Origin: Usitatibacteraceae bacterium
GTDB lineage: Bacteria; Pseudomonadota; Gammaproteobacteria; Burkholderiales; Usitatibacteraceae
Direction: 5' to 3'
Assembly: GCA_044228625.1 (NCBI GenBank)
Contig: JBGAUM010000002.1
Coordinates: forward strand, 21,056-85,055
DNA length: 64,000 bases
The position numbers and the translations under genes were made by a program. Under the pieces are notes generated by a model. It saw only the letters and a program-made list of their open reading frames with translations. It was not told the DNA's origin and made no database searches. Of this stretch, positions 2,585 to 52,131 are shown one piece after another. Position 1 is the stretch's first letter. Each line of letters starts with the position of its first letter.

Positions 2585-2938
2585 TTACTTCTTCTTCGAA
2601 GGCTCTGCAATCCAACTGGTAAGCAGCGTGATCACGCTGAACATCAGCGAGCCGATCAGCGCGGCCATGAAGCCGGTGACGGTGAAACCCTTCACGATCT
2701 CCGCAACAAACCAGAACAGGAACGCGTTGATGATGAAGATGAAGAGGCCCAATGTCAGCAACGTGACGGGCAGGGTGAGCAGCACCAGCAACGGCCGGAT
2801 GACGGCATTGACCAGCCCCAGCACCAAGGCCGCCATCAGCGCGGCGAAGATACTTTCCACTTTCACCCCGGAATAAAGCCAGGCCACCGCCATCAGGGCG
2901 AGCGCATTGAGGAACCAGCGAACGATCAGAGTAGTCAT
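2585..2938 (-). CDS. small multi-pass membrane protein, 'phage holin family IV'/YvlD-like
   Basis: The ATG at 2938 gives MTTLIVRWFLNALALMAVAWLY..., four hydrophobic helices, and a KKK tail. The track ORF 2585..3064 has an implausible N-terminal extension that overlaps panB. Confidence 0.6.
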   Translation of the reverse strand: MTTLIVRWFLNALALMAVAWLYSGVKVESIFAALMAALVLGLVNAVIRPLLVLLTLPVTLLTLGLFIFIINAFLFWFVAEIVKGFTVTGFMAALIGSLMFSVITLLTSWIAEPSKKK

Positions 2939-3011
2939 GTCAATTGGACGATTTGTTCTAAAACAGCCCGGATAATACCGCGTTGTTTCCCACTCCCGAT
3001 CAGGATTTTCC

Positions 3012-3833
3012 ATGAGTGTCGCCTCGATCCAGAAACGCCTGTCCGTGCCCGAAATCCGTGCCATGAAGGGCCACGCGAAGATCGTGATGCTGACGGCCTA
3101 CACCAAGCCGATGGCGCAATTGCTCGACCCGCATTGCGACATCCTGCTGGTCGGCGATTCACTGGGCATGATTGTCTATGGCCTCGACAACACCATGAAC
3201 GTGTCGCTGGACACGATGATTGCCCACACCCAGGCGGTGATGCGCGGTTCGGACCGCGCGATGGTGATCCTCGACATGCCCTGGGGTAGTTATCAGGAAT
3301 CGAAGGAGCAGGCTTACCGCAACTGCGCCCGCGCGTTGGCCGAATCGCGCGCACAAGCCGTGAAAATGGAAGGCGGCGCGGAGATGGTGGAAACCGTCGA
3401 GTTCCTCGTCGCGCGCGGCATTTCGGTGATGCCCCATATCGGCTTGATGCCGCAGCGCGTGAGTGCCCTGGGCGGCTTCAAGGCACAGGGAAAGGAGACT
3501 GATGCCGCGGAAAAGTGGACGCGCATCGCACGGGACTTCGAAGCGGCGGGGGCGTTCTCGGTGTTGATCGAAGGCACAGTCGAGCCCGTGGCGCGCGCGG
3601 TGGCGGAGTCGGTGTCGGTGCCCGTGATCGGCATCGGCGCTTCGCCGGCTTGTGATGGGCAGGTGCTGGTGACGGAAGACATTTTGGGACTCTTCCCGGA
3701 TTTCACGCCGAAATTTGCCAAGCGTTATATGGATCTTGGGAAGAATGTTTCGGAAGTCGCAGCGAAGTATTCAGAGGAGGTGAGGGGAGGGGTTTTCCCA
3801 TCTTTGGAGCATTGTTTTGGGGTGAAGAAGTAG
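3012..3833 (+). CDS. panB: 3-methyl-2-oxobutanoate hydroxymethyltransferase
   Basis: 273 aa with [21 protein letters not shown] and IGIGAS..CDGQVLV motifs, full length for PanB. Confidence 0.93.
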
Positions 3834-3840
3834 CAAGTTC

Positions 3841-4152
3841 ATGAGCATTCAACGTGACCCACTGAATTGGCCGAATGCCCTTCGCGCAGTCATCTGGATC
3901 GTCGTTGTCGTCGCGACCATCAATGACCGGTTTGACGTCGCTGCGACACTGATTGGTCTGCATTTGATTGCTGAGTCTGCTTTGCAATTCTTGAATCCGC
4001 GTATTCCGTACGGTTGGGAAGGTGGCGAACCAAGCGGCTACATAGTTGGAACTCCGGCGCGCATCATTGCGTTGCTATTTGGGCTCGTGGGATTGGCGAT
4101 ACTGGTACTGGGCGGGGACTTTCTGGAGGCGCTTTTTCGCCCTCGAGGATGA
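3841..4152 (+). CDS. hypothetical small membrane protein
   Basis: 103-aa ORF with two hydrophobic helices (VIWIVVVVATI, IIALLFGLVGLAILVLGG). It lies 8 nt after panB and I recognise no family. Confidence 0.4.
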   Translation: MSIQRDPLNWPNALRAVIWIVVVVATINDRFDVAATLIGLHLIAESALQFLNPRIPYGWEGGEPSGYIVGTPARIIALLFGLVGLAILVLGGDFLEALFRPRG

Positions 4153-4199
4153 GGATGTAATTCCGGTGAGGTGCTTTGCCGCCAATTTGTTGTCGCAAT

Positions 4200-4780
4200 C
4201 TGAACTAAGCCGGGGGTTGCCCGGCGGCAACTTCCTTTTCTTGCTCCGCCAAGAAAAGGAAGCAAAGGAAGGCGGCCCCAGCGTCCCCGCCCCGACGATG
4301 AAGCTGTCGGGATTCCCTGCGCTTCTCGAAGCAGCGGGCCGCTTGGTAACTCGCCGCGCGAATATTGCTGGCCCGAAGACGAAGTTCATTCCGCGCGGCT
4401 CAGACATCCCTCGCGGACTACTCCCGTTGCTTCTGCGATGCTCGGCGGGTCCAATGGTGGAAAGGCAAAACTTGCGTACATCCTCGGACATTGCACGAAT
4501 GCATGGTGAATGGGCCATTGGGGTCCCCATTAGGCGGCGCTGAGCAACGGAGCGGGCGCAGGGGATGTCGGCGAGGACTGTCTGAGCGGCGAGCACAAAA
4601 GAGTGGCTTGCGCACCGTTGTGGGTTCGAGCCGCGAGTTCCGCAGCCGCCTTCGCTCGCGAGTAGCGCAAGGAACCCCGAAGGGGCGCCGACTTTGGGTC
4701 GCCTTTTCTTTGGCTACTTTCTTTTTGGCGAAGCAAAAGAAAGTAGCTTGCCGCCGGGCAACCCGCGGCTCGATTCAGCA
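4200..4780. repeat. inverted pair of a ~250-bp structured intergenic repeat (arm A ~4202-4448 forward, arm B ~4533-4777 reverse)
   Basis: The reverse complement of arm B aligns with arm A along its length, for example gccgGgggttgcccggcggcaa vs gccgCgggttgcccggcggcaa. Each arm has a perfect 13-bp hairpin (4231-4243/4250-4262 and 4713-4725/4735-4747) plus a gttgcc/ggcaac hairpin. No credible ORF is present, and the translations (..FFLAKQKKVACRRATRGS..) resemble the junk ORFs these repeat families produce. Confidence 0.8.
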
Positions 4781-4847
4781 TGGCACACACTCAGACTTCC
4801 AGAGTTGCTAAGCGAACGGCGATGACAATACCAAGCCCAAGCTCCGG

Positions 4848-5561
4848 CTAGGGATCCCAACCGCGATACGTCCCCTTGTCCTTCACCGGCTTCGGATACG
4901 CCGGAACAGCACGCGTGGTCCAAGTGGTCACGATGCCTTTGTCGAGCGCGTCCACGCCCTCAAGCTTTTCACACGTCGTGTCGCGCTGGGTGCGTTCTTC
5001 GTCGCCTTTGCACAGTTGCGCAAGTGGTTCGGTGGGGCGGGCGCGCTGCTCGGGGTGGATGAAGCGCAGCAGGCCTTTGCGGTTCTCGAGGCGGATGAAG
5101 CGCTCAACGAAGTCCTCGCGCATCTTGCCGTCGGTCATGTCGAGGAAATAGTCGCCGGTTTTCTTCTTGTTCATCTCGTGCGTCTTCTTGTTGTAGCTGC
5201 CGTGGTAGCCGAGCACGGTGTGGAGGCCCGTTTGTGGCTCGGCAAACTGGCGCGTGACGCCACCCAAGAACATGTTTGCGCAGGCTGAAGAGCAGCGGCC
5301 CAACACCACTGTTGAAAGATTCCGCTTGCGGATGTCCTCGCCGATCTTGCGCCCGGCCTGCGAGTCGCCGCCGCCGGAGTTGTGGAACACGACCGCTTCG
5401 ATCTTGCCGTCGAAGCGAATCATCGCTTCTTCCCAGGCTTCCCAGTCCGAACGTACCACCGTGCCGCCGAGGAACAGATAAGGTGGGCTGGCGTGAAAGC
5501 TCATCGCGTGGGCGACCTGGGAGGCCAGCACGGCAACGGCCGCAAGGACAACGCGCCTCAT
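4848..5561 (-). CDS. hypothetical periplasmic protein (ClpP/crotonase-like, COG3904-type)
   Basis: The ATG at 5561 gives the signal peptide MRRVVLAAVAVLASQVAHA. The motif NSGGGDSQAGRKIGEDIRKRNLSTVVLGRCSSACANMFLGG is present. The start overlaps the hemH stop (ATGA, 5558-5561). Confidence 0.6.
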   Translation of the reverse strand: MRRVVLAAVAVLASQVAHAMSFHASPPYLFLGGTVVRSDWEAWEEAMIRFDGKIEAVVFHNSGGGDSQAGRKIGEDIRKRNLSTVVLGRCSSACANMFLGGVTRQFAEPQTGLHTVLGYHGSYNKKTHEMNKKKTGDYFLDMTDGKMREDFVERFIRLENRKGLLRFIHPEQRARPTEPLAQLCKGDEERTQRDTTCEKLEGVDALDKGIVTTWTTRAVPAYPKPVKDKGTYRGWDP

Positions 5562-6661
5562 GCCGGCGCCCCCATCGCCTTCGCATGTACTGCAGAGTCC
5601 TTCAACGCCGTCGCGTCCGGGGCGCGATCGATCCACCCACCCAAGTTCTCCGTCGCCACTGCCGACAGCGCTTCCACGAACGGCTGCGTGTCATTGGCCA
5701 CTGGAATGTAGTGGTACTCCTTCCCACCGGCTTCGAGATAGACATTCCGGTTCTCAATCGCCAGTTCCTCCAGCGTCTCCAGGCAATCCGCCGCAAACCC
5801 CGGCGCGATGATGTCCAATCTGCGCGTGCCGGCCTTGCCCAGTTTTTCCAGCGTCTTGTCCGTGTACGGCTGTAGCCATTCCGCGCGGCCGAAGCGCGAC
5901 TGAAAGGTGACGGCGTAATCGCCTTCCTTGACGCCGAGTTCGGCGGCAATCAGACGCGCGCTCTTGTGGCATTGGCAATGGTAAGGATCGCCCTTGTCGA
6001 GATGAAACTTGGGCAGGCCGTGGAAACTCATCATGAGCTTGTCCTGCTTGAAATCCGGCCGGCCGATCTTGGTCCATTCGGCCAACACGTTTTTGGCAAT
6101 GGCCCGGATGTAGGCCGGGTGGTCGTGGAAGCTCCGCACAAAGCGAATGCCCGGCACATTGCGCACACCGGCCAACACGCGGCCGATTTCATCCATGGTC
6201 GAGGCGGTCGTGCTCGCCGCATATTGCGGGTAAAGCGGCAGCACCAGGATATTGGCGCAGTTCTGGGCTTTCAGCTGATCGATGCCCGCCTGGATCGACG
6301 GGTTGCCATAGCGCATTGCCACCACGACCGGGAATTTCACGCCGGTTTGCTCGCCCAAATAACCGCGCAGCATTTGCGCCTGACGTTCGGTGATCACCCG
6401 CAGGGGCGAACCGTCCTTCTTCCAGATGTCTTCGTACTTCTTCGCCGTTTTCTTTGGCCGCGTGTTGAGGATGATGCCGTTCAGGATCAGCCACCAAAGG
6501 GGCCGCCAGATTTCCACGACACGTTCGTCCGACAGGAACTGTTTCAGGTAGCGCCGCACCGCCGGCGCGGTCGGCTCGTCCGGCGTGCCGAGGTTGACGA
6601 GCAGGATGCCGGTTTGCGGCGCGGTGCCGTGGGCGTAGGGCGGTTCAGGGCGGAAAGGCAT
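5558..6661 (-). CDS. hemH: ferrochelatase
   Basis: 367 aa with LLVNLGTPD, RYL.QFLSD.RVV, LPLYPQY, SFHG.P and DCLETLEE motifs. Confidence 0.93.
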   Translation of the reverse strand: MPFRPEPPYAHGTAPQTGILLVNLGTPDEPTAPAVRRYLKQFLSDERVVEIWRPLWWLILNGIILNTRPKKTAKKYEDIWKKDGSPLRVITERQAQMLRGYLGEQTGVKFPVVVAMRYGNPSIQAGIDQLKAQNCANILVLPLYPQYAASTTASTMDEIGRVLAGVRNVPGIRFVRSFHDHPAYIRAIAKNVLAEWTKIGRPDFKQDKLMMSFHGLPKFHLDKGDPYHCQCHKSARLIAAELGVKEGDYAVTFQSRFGRAEWLQPYTDKTLEKLGKAGTRRLDIIAPGFAADCLETLEELAIENRNVYLEAGGKEYHYIPVANDTQPFVEALSAVATENLGGWIDRAPDATALKDSAVHAKAMGAPA

Positions 6662-6747
6662 GGCAAACTCAAGGACTGGCGGGGCTTCCAGGCCAAAACA
6701 GCCTTGAAATGCCCGCCGGTATTGGGAGGAAGCGGCTCAGTGCGGGA

Positions 6748-7663
6748 TCAGTGTTGGGACAGGGCCGATGACAGCAACTTTGCCGTCACATCGACAATGG
6801 GAATCACACGCTCGTACGCCATCCGGGTGGGGCCGATGACGCCCACCGTGCCGACGATCTGTCCGTCGACCTCGTAGGGCGCCGTCACCACGGAAAACTC
6901 GTCGAGGGGTACGAGGCTCGATTCCCCGCCGATGAAGATCTTGACGCCTTCGGCACGCTGGCTCATGTCCAACAACTCCATCAATTGCGACTTGCGCTCG
7001 AAGACGTCGAATAGGCGGCGCAGCGACGTCATGTTGGAACCGATTTCATCGACATCCAGCAAGTTGCGCTCGCCGGACACCACCACGCCGGCCGAGTCCG
7101 AGCCCTGGCCGCGTGCTTCGACGACGGCGGACATCAGGGTGGAAATGTCGCGATGCAGCTGGGAGAGTTCGAGCTTGACATGCTCACGCAATTGGTCGAA
7201 TTCCACGCCGGCATAGTGCGCGTTGATGAAATTGGCGGCCTCGGTGAGCTGGGACGGTGTAAACGTTCAAGCCCACGCCCTGCCGGCGCGGGGCCATGAC
7301 GATGCCGGCGAAGTGGGTCAAGTCGGACAGCAATTGCGATGCGGCCAGCACCAGTTGCTTGGGGTCATCCGGGCGAATGCTGGTTTCAAGTTGCTCCATT
7401 TGTACCGGCTCGAGCGGCTGGATGGTCAATAGCGAATCCACAAACAGCCGGTACCCTTTCGGTGTGGGAATGCGCCCGGCCGAGGTATGCGGGCTGGCGA
7501 TGTAGCCCATCTCTTCCAGGTCCGCCATCACGTTACGGATGGAGGCGGGCGACAATTCCATGCCGGAAAATTTGGACAGGGCGCGCGAACCGACGGGTTG
7601 CCCGTCGGCAATGTAGCGCTCCACCAGAAACTTGAGCAGGGTTTGGGCGCGATCAGAGAGCAT
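6748..7663 (-). pseudogene. hrcA: heat-inducible transcription repressor HrcA, disrupted by an out-of-frame internal deletion (fragments 7184..7663 and 6748..7266)
   Basis: The N-terminal fragment [30 protein letters not shown]...[12 protein letters not shown] is intact. The C-terminal part (T)[28 protein letters not shown]...[28 protein letters not shown] lies in another frame. About 30-35 residues of the conserved ..IEFLRLS.KR.LLIIVT..G.VQNR.. core are missing between them. Confidence 0.85.
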
Positions 7664-7870
7664 GGGCAGATGTTAGCGTGAATTGCAACGGGAATGAACG
7701 CTGGTTTGCCGCGCTGCGTTGATGGACCCTGCGGCGGACCGCTACAGCGCGGGCAATTTAGCCGCGTTCCAGCGGCGTTTTGGCGCGAAATAGGTGCGCC
7801 CCGTCAATTTTTCAAGGTCTCGCTTGTGCCAGGCGCTGCAGGGCGCGGAGTCTGTGCTTAAATCCGGCTC

Positions 7871-8755
7871 ATGAACGCACAGGCCAAACATGTCGCGGTG
7901 GTCGCCAAGCACGATGGCGTCGGGGTCGGGGAACCGCTTGGACAGATCGTCCGCCTTTTGAAGCAGCGGGGATACACCGTGCGCGCCGACGACCGGACCG
8001 CCGGGTTCTCCCCCGTGGCACCCGATGAGGTGTTTCCGCGCGAGCCGCTCGATGCCCTGCTCGAGGGTGCGAACCTCGCGGTCGTCGTCGGCGGTGACGG
8101 CACGCTGCTCGGCTGCGCGCGTGTCGCGGCCCGGCACGATGTCCCGGTCATCGGTGTCAATCTGGGCCACCTGGGATTTCTCACGGACCTGTCAGCCGAC
8201 AACATTGCGGAAACCTTGGGTGCCGTGCTGGACGGCAAGTTCACTCGTGAATCGCGCATCTTGCTGGAAGGCGAGATCGAGCGTGACGGCAAGACCATCT
8301 TCCGCTCGGTGGCGTTGAACGATGTGGTGGTCAGCCGCGGCGCCATGGGCACCATGATCGAGATCTCCGTGGAAGTGGATGGCGAGTTTGTCTATTCGGC
8401 GCGGGCCGACGGGATCATCGTGGCCACCCCCACCGGCTCCACGGCGTATGCCTTGTCCAGCGGCGGTCCCATCCTGCATCCGTCCTTGTCTGCAATCACG
8501 CTGGTACCAATTTCCCCGCACACGTTGTCCAACCGACCCATCGCCATTGCCTCCACCTCAGTGGTGAAGATCCGGCTCCTGCACGGCAAGAATGCGCGCG
8601 TGAATTTTGACGTGCAGTCCTTTTTTGACCCGGCCACCGAGAATGTCATCACCATTCGCGCCCACCCGAAGCCGCTCACGCTCATCCATCCGGAGGGGCA
8701 TTCGTACTTCTCGGTCCTGCGCAACAAGCTGCACTGGAACGAGCGGACGTCCTGA
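7871..8755 (+). CDS. nadK: NAD(+) kinase
   Basis: 294 aa with GGDGTLL, NLG.LGFL and ATPTGSTAYALS.GGPI motifs. Confidence 0.93.
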   Translation: MNAQAKHVAVVAKHDGVGVGEPLGQIVRLLKQRGYTVRADDRTAGFSPVAPDEVFPREPLDALLEGANLAVVVGGDGTLLGCARVAARHDVPVIGVNLGHLGFLTDLSADNIAETLGAVLDGKFTRESRILLEGEIERDGKTIFRSVALNDVVVSRGAMGTMIEISVEVDGEFVYSARADGIIVATPTGSTAYALSSGGPILHPSLSAITLVPISPHTLSNRPIAIASTSVVKIRLLHGKNARVNFDVQSFFDPATENVITIRAHPKPLTLIHPEGHSYFSVLRNKLHWNERTS

Positions 8756-8781
8756 GGCGAACCGGCGGTCGTTGAATTTCC

Positions 8782-10446
8782 ATGCTGCGCACACTCTCCA
8801 TCCGAGATTTCATCCTGATCGAATCGCTGGACCTTGATTTCGAGGCCGGGTTCACCGCCATGACCGGGGAAACCGGGGCGGGCAAATCGATTCTGATCGA
8901 TGCGCTCACCCTGGCCCTCGGCGCGCGGGCCGACGGAAACGTGGTCCGCACGGGCGCAACGCGCGCCGAGATCGGACTCGAATGGGATTTGAGCCGCGCA
9001 ACGCGGGCGCGCCATTGGCTGGCGGAAAACGACTTGGCGGATGAAGATGCCAACGTGTGCCTGTTCCGGCGCGTGCTGGAATCCGGCGGTCGATCAAAGT
9101 CGTTCATCAACGGCACGGCGGTGACGCTGTCGCAAATGCGCGACCTGGCCGAGCGATTGATCGACATTCACGGCCAGCATGCGCATCAGACCCTGCTCAA
9201 ACGCGATGCGCAGTTGGCCTTGCTGGATGATTTTGCGGACCATGCGGACTTGCTGGAAGAAACGGCAAGGCGCCATCGCGAATGGTCCGAGCTTTCCCGC
9301 ATGCGCAGCGCGCGGGAGGTCAATGAAGCGGCCATCGCGCGCGAGTTTGAGGATCTCACCTGGCAGATCGGCGAATTGGCCAAGCTTGAATTCACGGTGG
9401 ACAAGTTTGCCGAGATCGAAGCCGAACAACGGCGTTTGGCCAATGCGGCGAGCCTGATTGCGTCGGTGGAAGGGGCCATCGAAGCGCTATCCGAGTCCGA
9501 GCGCCCGGCACTCGACACCATTGAATCGCTGGCGCGCGATTTGCAGGAAAGTGCGGAAACCGATGCGGAACTCAAAGATGCCGCCTCGCTGGTGCAGTCG
9601 GCCGCCGTTGAACTCTCGGAGGCCGTGTCTTCACTGCGCCACTACCTTCGCAAGCTTGATGCCGATCCTGCACGCCTAGCAGAGCTTGATCGCCACATTG
9701 CGGACGTTCAAGAGGTCTCGAGAAAGTTTCGTATCGAGCCAGCTCGTATTCCTGAGGTGTTGCAGCAAAAGCGCGATCGGCTGGCATCCCTGGGGGGCGG
9801 GCGATCCCTCGAAGCGTTGATCGAACAGGAGCGTGCCGCGTTTGCGGTTTACTCCGCGGCGGCCGCCAAGCTCACGCAGTCGCGCCTTGCGGCGGGCAAG
9901 CGGTTTTCCGCCGAAGTTACCCGCTCGCTCAAGGAACTGGCCATGGGAGGCGGGCGGCTGTCCGTGGAGTTTGCGTCGCGTGAGGCCTCGGCATCGGGGG
10001 TAGAGTCCTGCGAATTCATGGTCTGTGCCCATGAAGGCCAACCGGTGGGTCCCTTGGCGAAGATTGCGTCGGGCGGTGAGCTGTCGCGAATTTCGCTTGC
10101 CATCCAGATGATGGCCTCGTCGCGAGGCGGCGTGCCGGTGATGGTTTTCGATGAAGTGGACGCAGGCATCGGCGGCCGGGTTGCAGAAATTGTCGGGCGG
10201 CTCCTGCGCCGCCTCGGCAACAAACATCAGGTCCTGGCGGTCACGCACTTGGCCCAGGTGGCAGCGTGTGCGCATGCGCAATTCAGCGTCAGCAAATCCG
10301 AAGCGGCGGGCCAGGTATTGACCGCCGTGACGCCGCTCAAAGACAAGGCAAGGGTTGAGGAAGTCGCGCGCATGCTGGGGGGGCTCTCCATTACGGCAGC
10401 CACCCGCAAGGCGGCTGCGGAAATGATCGAGCGCGCGGAAAGTTGA
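8782..10446 (+). CDS. recN: DNA repair protein RecN
   Basis: 554 aa with Walker A GETGAGKS, a long coiled-coil middle region, and a C-terminal SGGELSR...VFDEVDAGIGG signature. Confidence 0.93.
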   Translation: MLRTLSIRDFILIESLDLDFEAGFTAMTGETGAGKSILIDALTLALGARADGNVVRTGATRAEIGLEWDLSRATRARHWLAENDLADEDANVCLFRRVLESGGRSKSFINGTAVTLSQMRDLAERLIDIHGQHAHQTLLKRDAQLALLDDFADHADLLEETARRHREWSELSRMRSAREVNEAAIAREFEDLTWQIGELAKLEFTVDKFAEIEAEQRRLANAASLIASVEGAIEALSESERPALDTIESLARDLQESAETDAELKDAASLVQSAAVELSEAVSSLRHYLRKLDADPARLAELDRHIADVQEVSRKFRIEPARIPEVLQQKRDRLASLGGGRSLEALIEQERAAFAVYSAAAAKLTQSRLAAGKRFSAEVTRSLKELAMGGGRLSVEFASREASASGVESCEFMVCAHEGQPVGPLAKIASGGELSRISLAIQMMASSRGGVPVMVFDEVDAGIGGRVAEIVGRLLRRLGNKHQVLAVTHLAQVAACAHAQFSVSKSEAAGQVLTAVTPLKDKARVEEVARMLGGLSITAATRKAAAEMIERAES

Positions 10447-46440: not shown

Positions 46441-48174
46441 TTACCCGGAGACTTGGAACGCGTTTTTGCGGTGCATGAGCAGCCAACTCGCATTCTCGTC
46501 CAAGGCAAACTTGCCCAACGTGAACAGGCATTGCTCCTCGATGGCTTCGTTGCCTGCATTTCTTTCCAGCGTGGAGCGCGCATTGCGGAACAGCGCGCCC
46601 ATCAGTTCGTAACTCACCGACTGCTCGGCGTAGCCCATCGCTGAGGCATAGCCCTTGATCACGCCGCCCAGCAAGAAGAAGCTGGTTGAAAAGGCCGACG
46701 CCGCGATTTTGATGTGGACCGGCATCAACATCATGCTGGCAACGGCGGCCACGCCCACCAGCAACAACGCGCCCGTCAAGGCGACGTTGGCCAGAAGTTC
46801 GATGCGCCCCGCGGCAATCTTGCACTGCAGAGCCTTACCGGGTCTTTGCGTCGTACCGAGGTAGTACTGCTCCTGGCCGTCCACCCAGTACCGGCCGACA
46901 TCAATCCGGGACGGAACATAGGATGAGGGCGGCTCCCACTGCCAAAGGGGCGCCACCATGAACTGGATGTTTCGCAAGGCCTCGCGGACCCAGCCCACCT
47001 CGGTCTTGACCAGTTGCTGGTACTCCTCTGCAACGCCATGGTGGATGCCGGTGATCTGCCAGAAAAACTGGATGCGCAGACCCTCCGCGATCGCACGGTA
47101 TTCAATATAGCGGTCGCCGATTTGCGAGAGTGGCAGGCGAAAGATCGACAGGTAGAGGCCGTAACCCAATGCCGCCGCTGCACCATAGGCGATGAGCCAC
47201 AACATTTCTTTTTGCGTGGTGAAAGCAGCCTGAAAGAAGGCGCCCAAGACCACGGCAATTGAAACCACACGGACGGCAAGATCCCGCTTGCGTCGAAGCC
47301 GCACCGACACGGAATCCGCGTCGGCAAAGAAGCGAGCCAAGGGGCTGCCGATTTGGCCGAGGCGACCTTGCTCCTCGAGCGGCAGAAGCGACCGAATGCT
47401 GTTGGTATGGTTGGGTTCGTTGTCGATCCGGTTTTTTCGGGCGGCGACATTGAATCGCGAGAACTCCCTTGCCGATTTTCGATACGCCTTGTCCAGCTTT
47501 GACTCGGGAACGCGTTTGGGCTTGTGGTCCGGGTCACTCAGCCGGCGGACTGGAATGTGAATCAGCGAAGTGGTTTCGGGGCTGGAAAGCAAATCCGCGC
47601 TCAATGTAGGCGGACCATGGCGGCACAACTCGACAATCGCCGCGGTTCCATGATCTTCCCCGGGCTTGGCCGGCACGCCATCCCACAACGCAATGACCAG
47701 CTGTGCCTGGCGGACGATGAAAATGTTTTGCTCGCGCATCCGAGATCGATGCACTTCATCGGCCGACGTCGGTTCTTCCGCAGGCGTGGCTGCGGCGGGA
47801 ATCTCGATGACCCGCCAGCACTTGGCCTGATACTCGTCGAAACTGGCGCGCGCTGTGTCGTCAGTCATTGACGCTCTCACGTCTGCGGCCGCGCAAGGCA
47901 AAACGCCGACGACCGCCCAATTTCGGATCATCGCTTCATCCGCGACCAATCGGTCGGTGGGGCTTGTGAGTCCGGTCAACAGGATCAGCGGTGCCTCGCG
48001 CGCCGTTCGCTCCACGCGTCGAAGCGTGTCCCGAACGCGCGCCCGAATCTGGCTTTCGTCGTCCGGGACCAGGTTGTCATGACTGGTCACCGCCACCACC
48101 ATCGGGACCAGGGAGGCGTCCGCAAGCGCCTCGCGCAGGTCCGCCCGAACCCCGCTGATTTTTTCTCTTCGCAT
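46441..48174 (-). CDS. SLOG-like nucleotide-sensor domain fused to a 4-TM (2 x 2TM, SLATT-like) membrane module; candidate effector
   Basis: 577 aa. The N-terminal ~190 aa are Rossmann-like (VVAVTSHDN..., LILLTGLTSPTDRLVADEA, VGVLP, LVIALWDGVPAKPGEDHGTAAIVE). TM pairs are VRVVSIAVVLGAFFQAAF / MLWLIAYGAAAALGYGLYLSIF and LLANVALTGALLLVGVAAVASMM / IKIAASAFSTSFFLLGGVIKGYA. The first pair is followed by an amphipathic YIEYRAIAEGLRIQFFW-type helix. Confidence 0.7.
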   Translation of the reverse strand: MRREKISGVRADLREALADASLVPMVVAVTSHDNLVPDDESQIRARVRDTLRRVERTAREAPLILLTGLTSPTDRLVADEAMIRNWAVVGVLPCAAADVRASMTDDTARASFDEYQAKCWRVIEIPAAATPAEEPTSADEVHRSRMREQNIFIVRQAQLVIALWDGVPAKPGEDHGTAAIVELCRHGPPTLSADLLSSPETTSLIHIPVRRLSDPDHKPKRVPESKLDKAYRKSAREFSRFNVAARKNRIDNEPNHTNSIRSLLPLEEQGRLGQIGSPLARFFADADSVSVRLRRKRDLAVRVVSIAVVLGAFFQAAFTTQKEMLWLIAYGAAAALGYGLYLSIFRLPLSQIGDRYIEYRAIAEGLRIQFFWQITGIHHGVAEEYQQLVKTEVGWVREALRNIQFMVAPLWQWEPPSSYVPSRIDVGRYWVDGQEQYYLGTTQRPGKALQCKIAAGRIELLANVALTGALLLVGVAAVASMMLMPVHIKIAASAFSTSFFLLGGVIKGYASAMGYAEQSVSYELMGALFRNARSTLERNAGNEAIEEQCLFTLGKFALDENASWLLMHRKNAFQVSG

Positions 48175-48349
48175 GGGGCATTATGTGAATTCGCGGGCCG
48201 CAACGCAATGATGGGCAGTGAATGAAGACGCGCGTTGCTTGCAGTGTGGCCCTGCGTTAGGCATAGTAGGTGCGAATCTCTCAAGACTGGCTGACCGAGT
48301 CCGCCCAAATGGCCCGGATCGCGGCAGTCTGAAAGATGAAAGCCAAACG

Positions 48350-50161
48350 ATGTCCTATCAGCCTGTCCAAAAACCAATAGACATTCAGGCAGTAAGACGA
48401 GCCATTTCGGCAGGCGATGCACTCGCGGCAATCGACCTGTTGCGCGACGCGGGTGCCGAACCACAGACGCTTGAGAAGAGGCAGCTATTGGCCATCGCCC
48501 TGCTGCGAGCCGGGGCGCTCAAGGACGCCCAGCGGGCCGTCCGGGAATTGATCGAAGAAGGTCACGATGATGAGGAAACGCTCGGCCTCGCCGCGCGCGA
48601 GGCCAAATCCCGCTACTTGCATGGTGAACCGGACGCGTTGAAGGAAGCCCGCGCCGCGTATTTGCGGGCCTTTCAAGTCACGCGTGGCACCTGGACGGGC
48701 ATCAACGCCGCAACATTGGCGCTGCTGGATGGTGATGAAGACGAAGCAAAGCGACTGGCGACGGAAGTCGGCGCTTTGCTGGCAGCGGCTCCCGCGGGGT
48801 CGCGAGCCACGTATTGGCATGAAGCGACGTCTGGCGAAGTGGCGCTCTTGCTGGGCGATCTCCAGAAGGCCATCGCGCATTATTCGGCGGCGCGCCGCAT
48901 CGAGCCGAGGGCGTACGGTAATCACCGATCGGTGCGCGACAACGCCTTGGCGATTCTTTCCGCCAGGGGATTGCCGTCGTCCACGCTGCAGGGGGTATTT
49001 CCCGGCGTGGGCGTGGCAGCTTTCTCCGGCCACATGGTGGATTCCCCGGGCCGGACACCACCGAGGTTTCCTCCGCATCTGGTGGGGAGCGTGGCCACTT
49101 CAATCGAACAGGCCATCCGCGAGCACGGTGTGGAGATCGGCGTTGCGGGAGCGGCGTGTGGTGGCGACATCCTGTTCCTGGAGGCCATGCAAAGGCTTGG
49201 CAAGGAAACCATCATTGTGCTTCCCCATCCCGTCGAAGCATTTCGAAAAGTGAGCGTGACGGATCCTGCCGGTGAGGCATGGGGCAAGCGATTCGACACC
49301 GTGGTTGCAAGCGCCTCAGAACTGATCGTCCTTGCGCCCCATTTGGGTGAAGACCTGGCCTACCAGTTTCAGGGCGCCGTCATGGCCGGAATCTCCTTGC
49401 AGCGCGCACGCGCGATTAATGGTCATGCGGTGGGGCTGGCACTATGGGATGGACTTCAGGGCGGGGTCGGTGGCACGGGGGCGGTCGTCGAGGAATGGGC
49501 GGCACGCGGCATCGAGGTGGCCTGCTTGCCTTTGGGGGAGGGAAGGGCAACGCGATTGGCACCGATCGAGGCACAGCAACGGCTTGCCACGATGGATCTA
49601 CGTCATGCTGCAGGACAGCGTGTCGTCTCCATCCTCTTTGCGGATGCCGTCGGTTTCAGCAGGCTGGGAGAATTTCAGGTCAAGGCGTTTGTGCGTGAAT
49701 TCTGGGGCCGGGCGGCAAAAATTGTCGACGCCATCCCGGATGGCCAGGTCTTGTCTGCCAATACCTGGGGGGATGGCCTTTTCCTGGTGATCGAGGATGC
49801 GGTCACGGCTGCAGACGCCGCGCTTGAGTTATCGGCCATGGTCACTTCGACGGAATGGAATCGTTTGGGGTTGCCATCCGACACCAACATCCGGATCGCG
49901 GTACATGCCGGGCCAGTGTACGAGGTGGAAGACCCCATCACGAAGCACCGTGGCTTTGCCGGGATGCATATCAGCCGGGCCGCGCGCATTGAGCCGGTCA
50001 CCCCCCCGGGGGAAGTGTATGTCAGCGAAGCATTTGCAGGCCTGTTGGAATTCGACGACCACCAAGACCGGTTCCTGTGTGAGTTCGTCGGGACGGTGCC
50101 GATGGCAAAAGAGTATGGTAGGTTTCGGACCTACCGGCTGGCCTATCGCAAAATGCCTTGA
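48350..50161 (+). CDS. TPR (DUF4071/TRAFs-binding-like) + SLOG-like + class III nucleotidyl cyclase fusion protein; candidate signal generator
   Basis: Start is ATG 48350, or GTG 48218. N-terminal helical repeats carry GINAATLALL and YWHEATSGEVALLLGDLQKAIAHY. The middle region VAAFSGHMVDSPGRTPPRFPP...GVAGAACGGDILFLEAM...IIVLP...GLALWDGLQGGVGGTGAVVEE matches the neighbour's N-terminal domain. The C-terminal cyclase motifs are ILFADAVGFS, NTWGDGLFLV, RIAVHAGPV and ISRAARIE. Confidence 0.75.
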   Translation: MSYQPVQKPIDIQAVRRAISAGDALAAIDLLRDAGAEPQTLEKRQLLAIALLRAGALKDAQRAVRELIEEGHDDEETLGLAAREAKSRYLHGEPDALKEARAAYLRAFQVTRGTWTGINAATLALLDGDEDEAKRLATEVGALLAAAPAGSRATYWHEATSGEVALLLGDLQKAIAHYSAARRIEPRAYGNHRSVRDNALAILSARGLPSSTLQGVFPGVGVAAFSGHMVDSPGRTPPRFPPHLVGSVATSIEQAIREHGVEIGVAGAACGGDILFLEAMQRLGKETIIVLPHPVEAFRKVSVTDPAGEAWGKRFDTVVASASELIVLAPHLGEDLAYQFQGAVMAGISLQRARAINGHAVGLALWDGLQGGVGGTGAVVEEWAARGIEVACLPLGEGRATRLAPIEAQQRLATMDLRHAAGQRVVSILFADAVGFSRLGEFQVKAFVREFWGRAAKIVDAIPDGQVLSANTWGDGLFLVIEDAVTAADAALELSAMVTSTEWNRLGLPSDTNIRIAVHAGPVYEVEDPITKHRGFAGMHISRAARIEPVTPPGEVYVSEAFAGLLEFDDHQDRFLCEFVGTVPMAKEYGRFRTYRLAYRKMP

Positions 50162-50284
50162 TGCAACGTGGCCAGTTGCCATGACGGCGATTGGCGATCA
50201 CTCGACAACCCTGTCCGGTTTTTTCTGCCTGTAGATTGTGTTGGGGAAAAGTAAAGGTTGGGAAGAGGGACGATGGTGCGCTGT

Positions 50285-52030
50285 TCAGCCGCGCGAACGC
50301 GTTCCAATGACAAAGTACATGTCGATGGCTCCCTTGCCCTTGGCATCGACCTTGCCCCGATATTCGCATTCGAATTCTTCCTGCACGAGATCGTAAGTGT
50401 AGGCTGAAATATTGACGCGGCCTGGCTCGCTGGCGCTTTCGAAGCGGGACGCGAGATTGACGGTGTCGCCCCAAATGTCGTACGCATATTTGCGTTTGCC
50501 CACGACGCCGGCGACGACGGGCCCTGAATGTACGCCGATGCGGATACCCCATTTGAATGGCGACCTCTTGTTGCGTTCGGCCACGTATTCCGCAATGCCC
50601 AGCGCGGCGCGTACGCATCGCAGCGCGTGATCCCCACAAGGCTTGGGCAGCCCGGCGGCGGCCATGTACGCATCGCCGATGGTCTTGATTTTCTCGACGC
50701 CACAACGATCCGTGATGTCATCGAATGCGGCAAACAACTCGTTGAGCTCCGCCACCATGCGGTCGGCCGGAATGCTCGCGACGGCCTGCGTGAAACCGGA
50801 AAAATCCGTGAAAAGGATGGTGACCGATTCAAAGCGGGCCGGCTTTGACTCGCCGGTGCTGGACAATTCGTTTGCCACATCCGCGGGAAGGATGCTGTGC
50901 AGCAGATCCTGGGTACGCGCCTGCTCGGCCTTCAACTGGGCTGTGCGTTCCTCCACTTTTTGTTCAAGTACGGCGTAGGACTGTTTGAGGTGACTGCCCA
51001 TCGCATTGAACTGCCCCGCCAATTCTTCGAGTTCGTCGCCCGTCTGAATGTCAATTTTGCGTTCAAAGTTGCCCCCCCCGATTTCCTTGGCACCCTCCGC
51101 AAGGACCCCGAGCGGTCTCACCAGGCGCTTGGCTAGAAAAAAGCTCGCCGCAACGGAGATCACCAGGCCTGCTGCGAGCAATACCAATGCCCGAATGATC
51201 ACCGGCGTCGTGGCCTCCAGCGCCTCTGCGCGAGGGGTATCCACGAAGACCCGCCACCCCAGAAAGTCGATCGGAGAGTGCGCAGAGATCACAGGCTCCT
51301 GGGCAATGTTGACGCCCATTGAGGACGGCTGCCCTTTCAGCGCCCCGGACACCTGCGGCAGGGCCATAAGATTGGTCTTTTTCAGCACCAATGAAATATC
51401 GGGATGGGCGATCAACGTTCCTGAACCATCCACGACGTAGGTGACGCCCGCTTTTCCGGACCTGATCTTGGACACCACGTTCCAAACCAGTTTCAGGTTC
51501 ACTTCGGCTAACACCGCACCGCCGCCCAATGCGGGCTTGATAATGGTCATGTAAGGTTCGGTCCCTTTCAGGAAATACACCGGGCCAAAACTGGTCTTGC
51601 CTGCCTTGGCAGACGCGTACAACGGATTCGTCGATTGATCGGTACTGGAGCCGCTCGAATCCATGGCCAGCCGTGAGACTCTTGCGCGCTCAATGGCGCT
51701 CTTGTCGATCCATGCGGCTTCGGTAACGGCGGGTACCTGCCGCATGAGCTTGAGCAGCGCGATGCGCCGTTGCTCGATCTCATCACCACTGCCAAACGTG
51801 ACGGGCAATGCCGCCCAGCCCATCTGGTGCTCGATATCAACCACAAACTGCTCAATGCGAATCGCCGCAGAAACCGATTTTTCTGCCTGCAACTCTGTGA
51901 GCTGCGCCTCGGTCTCCTTGACCGAGAAATAGGCGCCGATTCCGCCGCTGAGCATCAGCAAACCGGCCACCAACGACACAATCAATGTGGCGTACTTGGG
52001 GAACAGCCGCCAACGGCGCATTAGCTGCAT
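50285..52030 (-). CDS. membrane adenylate/guanylate cyclase with a periplasmic Cache-like sensor and HAMP
   Basis: TM1 YATLIVSLVAGLLMLSGGIGAYF, a ~270-aa periplasmic region (GVTYVVDGSGTLIAHPD), TM2, then HAMP (RPLGVLAEGAKEIGGGNF...DELEELAGQFN). The class III cyclase part has ILFTDFSGFT, IKTIGDAYMAA, RIGVHSGPVVAGVVG and WGDTVNLASRFE. Start is ATG 52030, or 52021, or TTG 52066. Confidence 0.85.
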   Translation of the reverse strand: MQLMRRWRLFPKYATLIVSLVAGLLMLSGGIGAYFSVKETEAQLTELQAEKSVSAAIRIEQFVVDIEHQMGWAALPVTFGSGDEIEQRRIALLKLMRQVPAVTEAAWIDKSAIERARVSRLAMDSSGSSTDQSTNPLYASAKAGKTSFGPVYFLKGTEPYMTIIKPALGGGAVLAEVNLKLVWNVVSKIRSGKAGVTYVVDGSGTLIAHPDISLVLKKTNLMALPQVSGALKGQPSSMGVNIAQEPVISAHSPIDFLGWRVFVDTPRAEALEATTPVIIRALVLLAAGLVISVAASFFLAKRLVRPLGVLAEGAKEIGGGNFERKIDIQTGDELEELAGQFNAMGSHLKQSYAVLEQKVEERTAQLKAEQARTQDLLHSILPADVANELSSTGESKPARFESVTILFTDFSGFTQAVASIPADRMVAELNELFAAFDDITDRCGVEKIKTIGDAYMAAAGLPKPCGDHALRCVRAALGIAEYVAERNKRSPFKWGIRIGVHSGPVVAGVVGKRKYAYDIWGDTVNLASRFESASEPGRVNISAYTYDLVQEEFECEYRGKVDAKGKGAIDMYFVIGTRSRG

Positions 52031-52131
52031 GGCCCACGCAGTTGCATCACGGATTTCATTGCGCAAGTCTAAGCGATGATTCGTAAGGCGGGGCCCACCG
52101 ACATGCGCTCCCTTGACGGATACTTGCAGCG

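Follow-up and report, generated by a model that had tools for sequence, protein, structure and literature searches.

A large clade of SLOG-fused class III cyclases with non-canonical base-specifying residues and genetic linkage to TIR genes, seen from a Usitatibacteraceae locus

Which nucleotide does a class III cyclase use when the residue that normally reads the purine is replaced, and in what kind of system would such an enzyme work? The question is raised by a gene of a Usitatibacteraceae bacterium (Burkholderiales; GenBank assembly GCA_044228625.1) that lies in a 64,000-nucleotide stretch of contig JBGAUM010000002.1 (positions 21,056 to 85,055 of the forward strand). Here we refer to this whole stretch as the window, and coordinates given without a contig or locus name are window positions. 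The encoded protein of 603 amino acids (aa) combines an N-terminal TPR-S repeat domain, a SLOG domain and a C-terminal class III cyclase domain. The initial annotation, made from the DNA letters alone, had proposed an active enzyme of non-canonical specificity, with Asn in place of the purine-specifying Lys, and had named the Pycsar cyclases as a precedent. Judging from the alignments of its relatives, the substitution defines a very large clade, in which the second base-contact position is non-canonical as well.

The motifs that had been read in the cyclase domain, and the Asn codon (AAT, 49760-49762), were confirmed from the codons, with ILFADAVGFS at 49631-49660, ANTWGDGLF at 49757-49783, RIAVHAGPV at 49892-49918 and ISRAARIE at 49970-49993. 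The longest open reading frame (ORF; 48218-50161, +) opens at the GTG at 48218, and residue numbers such as Asp476 and Asn515 follow this ORF; the ATG at 48350 is the likely true start, and the 603-aa product that begins there is identical to the cluster representative P0001, in which Asp476 is Asp432. In a phmmer search against the sequences of the Protein Data Bank (PDB), Asn515 aligned with the Lys of IKTIGDA in Rv1264 and with the Glu of VETIGDA in sGC-beta, and a profile built from 36 family sequences gave the same placement. In the profile, Gly579 aligned with the second base-contact residue, which is Cys in guanylate cyclases and Asp in adenylate cyclases. Thus both base-specifying positions are non-canonical, and the canonical purine pair (Lys/Asp for ATP, Glu/Cys for GTP) gives way to Asn515 and Gly579. 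Three independent alignments agree on the Asn at the purine-specifying position, and none of them puts a Lys or a Glu there. The reported exchange of the transition-state Asn for Ser held as well, as Ser586 stands opposite the Asn of GDTVN in the profile, while Arg559 and Arg590 are both present and in effect invariant. The purine pair is the feature that defines substrate subclasses, not the class III superfamily.

Conservation was counted on 266 distinct proteins aligned to the family profile. The Lys/Glu position is N in 252 of them (H in 4, S, Q and E in 2 each, K in 0), the residue that follows is T in 258, and the one just before Gly-Asp is W in 264. The Asp/Cys position is mostly N (98), S (50), G (49) or T (38), with D in 6 proteins. 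At the position of the transition-state Asn, which contacts the ribose, S (205), N (31) and T (17) alternate, which suggests that a hydrogen-bonding role has been kept. A family-specific His (His584), two residues ahead of Ser586, was found in 244 relatives and the transition-state Arg in 265, and the FxDxxGFS loop is conserved. The metal-binding Asp residues, described before as retained, are nearly without exception in the family (Table 1). To judge from these counts, the pocket substitutions are a trait of the clade and not a local mutation, far beyond chance. By the same alignments, purifying selection acts on the catalytic machinery as well as on the remodelled base pocket, a pattern unlike that of a decaying pseudo-enzyme, and the invariant Asn-Thr-Trp, where canonical cyclases have Lys-Thr-Ile, speaks for a base pocket remodelled under selection. 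Since both metal-binding Asp residues and both catalytic Arg residues are in effect invariant, the domain is probably active.

The residue directly before the invariant Asn, Ala514 (49757-49759) in our protein, is Lys or Arg in 167 of the 266 relatives, and Ala is also found at this position in close betaproteobacterial relatives. We considered this Lys or Arg (63% of the family) as a substitute for the canonical Lys and rejected it, because its side chain, on a beta-strand, should face away from the pocket; it is also absent here.

The clade is extensive. More than 667 full-length homologues were retrieved by a word-indexed search, and at least 547 loci were located in species-representative genomes of Acidobacteriota, Verrucomicrobiota, Cyanobacteria, Beta- and Deltaproteobacteria, Planctomycetota and other phyla. 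For the cyclase domain alone, an exhaustive HMMER search gave 2,668 clusters at 50% identity with E <= 1e-3, and 637 with E <= 1e-30. The existing annotations of the relatives go no further than 'class 3 adenylate cyclase', 'TRAFs-binding domain' or 'DUF4071' protein.

The domain layout was examined on an AlphaFold2 model of the full-length protein, built from a 42-sequence alignment, with a predicted local distance difference test (pLDDT) of 92.2 and a predicted template modelling score (pTM) of 0.92. Three domains can be told apart in it. Helical repeats take up residues 12-213 and are followed by a Rossmann-like domain (221-412) and by the cyclase domain (423-599). The N-terminal repeats match the Pfam families TPR-S and MAP3K_TRAF_bd/DUF4071. 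In the Foldseek search against the PDB, the top 50 matches were all class III cyclases, many of them with probability 1.00, with target-normalised template modelling (TM) scores of 0.77-0.82 to RhGC, Rv1900c, CyaC, sGC and Ma1120; the catalytic domain of Rv1900c was among the best of them (0.81-0.82). The family profile matched 41 cyclase sequences of the PDB, and PF00211 matched residues 469-639 with 23.7 bits, against a gathering score of 21.9. On the modelled fold and these matches, the C-terminal 180 residues can be assigned with confidence to a class III-type nucleotide cyclase domain.

The middle domain had been called SLOG before, and the fold search bears this out. Its region gave no Pfam match and no sequence relative in the PDB, including with a sequence profile. 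Modelled in isolation (pLDDT 87.5), it found YpsA (2nx2) as its best Foldseek match (E 2e-7), followed by DprA, LOG, the ADP-ribose-binding domain of TRPM2 and ShosA. The middle domain is thus, by its predicted structure, a SLOG domain. At its start (49010-49090) the family shows a nearly invariant F-x-G-H-M-I-D-x-P-x-R-x-x-P-R-F-P, which is not found in LOG or DprA and likely represents a putative site for the phosphate of a ligand. NCBIfam and PADLOC gave nothing informative for the cyclase protein or for the SLATT protein that is encoded divergently from it.

Table 1. Features of the SLOG-cyclase locus in the window
Feature	Position	Strand	Basis
Divergent 577-aa protein, N-terminal SLOG head and C-terminal SLATT/DUF4231-type membrane domain	46441..48174	-	weak PF14015 match
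Shared intergenic region between the divergent genes, 175 bp	48175..48349	.	ORF coordinates
TPR-S / SLOG / class III cyclase gene, 603 aa	48350..50161	+	ORF list, P0001 identity, AlphaFold2
TPR-S / MAP3K_TRAF_bd (DUF4071) all-helical repeat domain	48383..48988	+	PF20308 9.4e-17, PF13281 1.6e-08; model helices
SLOG (SMF/DprA-LOG) Rossmann-like domain, predicted nucleotide-ligand sensor	49010..49585	+	fold match
Class III nucleotidyl cyclase catalytic domain	49616..50146	+	Foldseek, family profile, PF00211
First metal-binding Asp, Asp476 (GAT)	49643..49645	+	D in 266/266 relatives
Asn515-Thr516-Trp517 (AAT ACC TGG), in place of Lys/Glu-Thr-Ile before Gly-Asp	49760..49768	+	codons, alignments to K or E of solved cyclases
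Second metal-binding Asp, Asp519 (GAT)	49772..49774	+	D in 265/266 relatives
Phosphate-binding Arg559 (CGG) of RIAVHAGPV	49892..49894	+	R in 265/266 relatives
Gly579, second canonical base-specifying position	49952..49954	+	opposite sGC-beta Cys in profile alignment
His584-Ile-Ser586-Arg587-Ala-Ala-Arg590	49967..49987	+	codons; Ser for transition-state Asn, Arg590 kept

What the enzyme would make is less clear than what it is. The product of a class III cyclase is usually assigned from two residues, and this clade has replaced both in a fixed way while the core is kept, so that its product is not readable from sequence. Amide or small residue pairs tend to loosen base discrimination. Rv0386, as Castro and co-workers are said to have reported in 2005, has a Gln/Asn pair and mixed purine use, and Rv1900c, reportedly described by Sinha and co-workers in the same year, has Asn at the Lys position and makes cyclic AMP (cAMP) with a minor guanylate side activity. 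By analogy, a lone Asn at the Lys position would not in itself predict a switch away from purines. Rv1900c reportedly keeps the second specificity Asp, whereas the SLOG-cyclase family has Gly or a small residue there. A non-canonical specificity is plausible from the residues, and a pyrimidine or another non-canonical substrate is possible. Our expectation is placed for about half on promiscuous or purine use, for a much smaller part on pyrimidines, and for slightly smaller and equal parts on something else and on an inactive domain; here the motifs, fold, conservation and neighbourhood counts are observations, and we infer catalytic activity and substrate, as well as the direction of signal flow.

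The loss of the transition-state Asn is compatible with activity, because the position is Ala in Ma1120, an active adenylate cyclase that has been crystallised (PMC4215837), and His in Rv1900c (PMC4886424), and both are active without the Asn. The proposal of an active enzyme thus received indirect support, from the conservation of the core, the predicted fold, the alternation of Ser with Asn and Thr within the family, and these Asn-less cyclases. Rv1900c (LipJ; PDB 1ybt/1ybu) has the class III fold in common with our protein and likewise lacks the transition-state Asn (PMC4886424). It differs in being fused to an alpha/beta hydrolase, with no TPR-S or SLOG, no Trp before the GD and no TIR context.

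In what kind of system these proteins may work was approached through their neighbourhoods. Six-frame ORFs of 84 related loci were searched with iterated profiles, and counts were made on those 54 that had 4 kb or more to each side. A TIR protein is encoded in 32 of these 54, and in 30 it lies within 1.5 kb of the cyclase gene. The nearest relatives, L005 and L001, also have an adjacent TIR gene; as background, the whole 3.4-Mb genome of the window, which is TIR-rich, gave about 6 TIR matches. The partners are TIR-DUF4062 or SIR2-TIR proteins, some of which match ThsB_TIR, and an nSTAND1-TPR or nSTAND1-WD40 protein often comes after them, with an nSTAND1 NTPase in 17/54 loci. The partners at the related loci gave no match to a CNBD, the domain that binds cyclic nucleoside monophosphates (cNMPs). 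On a replicon of Novosphingobium sp. RL4 (NZ_CP141945.1; L098:3622-7248), a 548-aa ThsB-like TIR-TPR protein is followed by a 491-aa TPR-S-SLOG protein without a cyclase, a pair that may be type VIII Thoeris-like and that carries no annotation in the record. As this cyclase-free TPR-S-SLOG gene adjoins a ThsB-like TIR gene, the TPR-S-SLOG part appears to be what is linked to TIR, and the cyclase an appended output.

A further arrangement was seen on the Rhizobium leguminosarum plasmid CP050566.1 (L099, 32153-40319), which encodes a CAP12/Pycsar-type TIR, a stand-alone 175-aa SLOG of the same subtype and a TPR-S protein. The same island also holds DUF4231 (SLATT), DUF3380, patatin and DUF4071 proteins, so that the modules are separate genes there.

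The resemblance to Thoeris lies in the sensor. The vocabulary of SLOG, SLATT, TPR-S, nSTAND1, TIR and cNMP cyclase domains, and the predicted logic by which a nucleotide signal activates a pore, come from the conflict systems predicted by Burroughs, Kaur, Aravind and colleagues (2015, 2020; PMC7159879). The SLOG domain of ThsA binds the TIR-made 3' isomer of cyclic ADP-ribose (3'cADPR), and types VII (SLATT) and VIII (TPR with a CMP-hydrolase-like domain) respond to canonical cADPR, their effectors being occasionally found in one operon (bioRxiv 10.64898/2025.12.03.692087). As in ThsA (SIR2-SLOG) and ThsI (TPR and CMP-hydrolase-like), a SLOG and/or TPR-S-type sensor is encoded beside a TIR gene, in some cases a ThsB-like one, at many loci of the SLOG-cyclase family, and the SLOG fold of the cyclase protein, with its predicted ligand binding, would provide such a sensor here. 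The occurrence of type VII SLATT and type VIII TPR effectors in one operon is paralleled in the window by the pair of SLATT and TPR-S-SLOG-cyclase proteins. Unlike Thoeris, the output here is a class III cyclase and not a SIR2 or hydrolase domain, and its TIR partners are of the long TIR-DUF4062 or SIR2-TIR kind, in many cases accompanied by nSTAND1. In the literature examined, no description was found of the TPR-S-SLOG-cyclase architecture or of the Asn-Thr-Trp pocket.

We judge it moderately probable that the protein is a SLOG-gated cyclase output that responds to a TIR signal, with a relaxed or non-canonical choice of base. In such a system the SLOG domain would bind a NAD-derived signal made by a TIR protein and switch the cyclase on, following the logic of Thoeris. 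The enzyme, as a homodimer, would cyclise a nucleoside triphosphate (NTP) by the standard two-metal mechanism, with base selection relaxed or non-canonical. Where a SLATT protein is present, the same TIR-derived nucleotide might bind the SLOG domains of both proteins, so that the SLATT pore opens while the cyclase is activated. The output could be a drain of NTPs, a flood of cNMPs or a second messenger, and a relaxed pocket would suit the drain or the flood. A two-tier relay, at which the TIR signal acts through SLOG to yield a cyclase product other than cAMP or cyclic GMP (cGMP), or indiscriminate cyclisation of NTPs, is a tentative extension which we hold to be somewhat unlikely.

Several observations weigh against this TIR-responsive reading. 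No TIR gene adjoins the cyclase gene in the window, and the synteny with the closest relative, L005, breaks exactly at the cyclase stop codon. Possible partners in this genome, a SIR2-TIR protein (460 aa) and an nSTAND1-TPR protein (1137 aa), are encoded as a pair on another contig, C167 (L095, 9586-14180). In mammalian adenylate cyclase, as reported by Yan and co-workers in 1997, catalysis is impaired when the transition-state Asn is lost. PADLOC 2.0 assigned no component, among them the partners at related loci, to a known system. In a Chthoniobacterales/Verrucomicrobiae subgroup (L019, L028, L030, L038, L046, L076, L080, L081), the gene order around the cyclase gene is conserved and includes yqeY, ispD and a gene for a family-9 heptosyltransferase, and most copies have no TIR neighbour, although TIR ORFs occur near L019 and L080. 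This hints that a part of the family has been domesticated for a non-defence role, and not every member need be immune. Finally, the signal could flow in reverse by analogy to Pycsar and Pucsar, with the cyclase making the signal and the TIR protein acting as a NADase effector.

The same Chthoniobacterales copies, set in housekeeping synteny, would suit an ordinary cyclase that makes cAMP, or cAMP and cGMP promiscuously, whose product is unaffected by the non-canonical residues and whose role is physiological and not immune. Such an enzyme is also suggested by the Rv1900c domain among the best structural matches, by an amide/small pair that is reportedly akin to those of Rv0386 and Rv1900c, by the annotation of relatives as class 3 adenylate cyclases, and by the presence of a Cache-HAMP cyclase and a GGDEF protein in the window. 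These two second-messenger genes, however, are not conserved in L005. Moreover, TIR genes in 30/54 loci, together with nSTAND1, SIR2 and SLATT partners, are typical of conflict systems; SLOG and TPR-S, both fused to the cyclase, are tied to TIR signalling; and the strict invariance of Asn-Thr-Trp suggests a specific pocket and not a degenerate one. We consider an ordinary cyclase unlikely. The immune context of the family would also accommodate a Pycsar-like pyrimidine cyclase, in which Asn515, with the bulky Trp517, would make the pocket narrower and recognise uracil or cytosine, giving cyclic UMP (cUMP) or cyclic CMP (cCMP) as an immune messenger. The residues give this some appeal, since Asn515 (D519-4) and the invariant Trp517 (D519-2) stand at the same places relative to the second metal Asp as the specificity residues R142 and Q144 of EaPycC (D146-4 and D146-2) or, for D-2, K104 of AnPycC (D106-2); PycC pockets are filled by bulky residues to suit the smaller base, and uracil is read by Asn in PycTIR and in UTP-using CD-NTases (PMC11224242). 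In the SLOG-cyclases, on the other hand, a small residue (G, S, N or T) stands at the second pocket position and would make the pocket larger and not narrower. An Asn at the Lys position is also said to be compatible with the use of ATP in Rv1900c.

The comparison with the Pycsar cyclases themselves points the same way. PycC of Pycsar and PucC of Pucsar are class III-type immune cyclases that choose the base through non-canonical residues around the xxGD (PMC11224242; bioRxiv 10.64898/2026.08.12.744502), yet the residue sets differ (N/W/small in SLOG-cyclases; R/Q/F, K/F/F, D/R/Y or E/K in PycC/PucC), and the fused TPR-S and SLOG domains of the SLOG-cyclase family are lacking in PycC. The PADLOC hidden Markov models (HMMs) of PycC gave no match to the SLOG-cyclase at E <= 0.01, although the ordinary cyclase next to it matches PDLC00734 at 4.2e-19, and no PycC structure appeared in the Foldseek top 50. 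No Pycsar-type effector with a cyclic-nucleotide-binding domain adjoins the gene, whose neighbours are the SLOG-SLATT protein and the Cache-HAMP cyclase, and the partners across the family carry SLOG, TIR and STAND domains. Taken as membership, the Pycsar precedent did not stand: we rejected it for want of a PycC model match and of an adjacent cNMP-binding effector, the partners being TIR, nSTAND1 and SLATT proteins, and we find a pyrimidine cyclase of that kind improbable. The Pucsar preprint describes 'immune clade 1' cyclases with STAND fusions (bioRxiv 10.64898/2026.08.12.744502), which may include the SLOG-cyclase clade. Least likely of all, in our opinion, is a dead pseudo-cyclase that binds a nucleotide and serves as a regulatory or oligomerisation module, as has been proposed for some cyclase domains fused to vWA proteins in conflict systems. 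It would explain the loss of the transition-state Asn, the two non-canonical base-contact residues and a Pfam score barely over the threshold, and inactive cNMP cyclase domains are described in conflict systems by Kaur et al. 2020 (PMC7159879). However, the two-metal and triphosphate residues are invariant in 265-266 of the 266 relatives, which is unexpected for a pseudo-enzyme, and other cyclases are active despite lacking the Asn (PMC4215837, PMC4886424).

The answer would matter beyond this locus, as the clade comprises at least 2,600 clusters at 50% identity from many phyla, fused to SLOG and genetically linked to TIR, STAND and SLATT genes. The substrate and the activator would tell whether a TIR signal is chained to a cyclic-nucleotide signal or whether the cyclase is an effector that depletes NTPs. 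An annotation would be gained for thousands of genes that at present go by 'adenylate cyclase' or 'TRAFs-binding domain protein', and the two-tier relay, if true, would add a new branch to bacterial immune signalling in thousands of genomes.

Within the window, the local partner of the cyclase protein is the divergent SLATT protein. Comparing its family with the SLOG of the cyclase family by hhalign gave a probability of 96.9% (E 2e-10, 152 columns), and the blocks GH, GxD, VLP and WDG...GGT are common to both SLOG profiles. On account of this profile-profile match, the two divergent genes carry one and the same sensor subtype, joined in one to a membrane domain and in the other to a cyclase as output, and the SLATT protein probably answers to the same ligand as the cyclase protein. 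It is a candidate pore-forming co-effector or receptor, and its homologues are found near TIR-STAND or TIR-TPR genes. The G-H of the SLOG opening motif is also present in its head. We considered the SLOG-SLATT protein as the conserved partner of the family and rejected it, as tblastn found it only in the closest relative; the common partner is the TIR protein.

That relative, L005, has a cyclase protein 79% identical to ours. Its DNA is 75-79% identical to the window and collinear with it from 40687 to the cyclase stop codon, a stretch that takes in a 160-aa lipoprotein-like gene and the divergent 577-aa gene. Past the stop codon, L005 (9420-14964) continues with SIR2-TIR and nSTAND1-WD40 genes, and L001, L002 and L006 (62% identity) do likewise. 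In the window, a gap of 123 nt (50162-50284) is followed by the convergent gene of the Cache-HAMP cyclase (50285-52066, -). The latter was described before as canonical and is so, with IKTIGDAYM, RIGVHSGPV and NLASRFE motifs and a PF00211 score of 188 bits. At this site the module is thus without its TIR/STAND half, which was either lost or never acquired.

The genome holds one copy of the SLOG-cyclase gene. The SIR2-TIR protein of contig C167 shares 47% identity with its counterpart next to the cyclase in L005, and the C167 pair could work together in trans with the window's SLOG proteins. A second cyclase copy was looked for beside this pair and was not there; the gene divergent from the pair encodes a TonB-dependent receptor. 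Elsewhere in the genome, contig C169 carries four tandem ORFs of 654-945 aa at about 2600-9400 (L087-L090), each with a TIR-like segment, and contig C132 (L086) carries one ORF of 652 aa with such a segment. Together, these ORFs look like a TIR-rich island.

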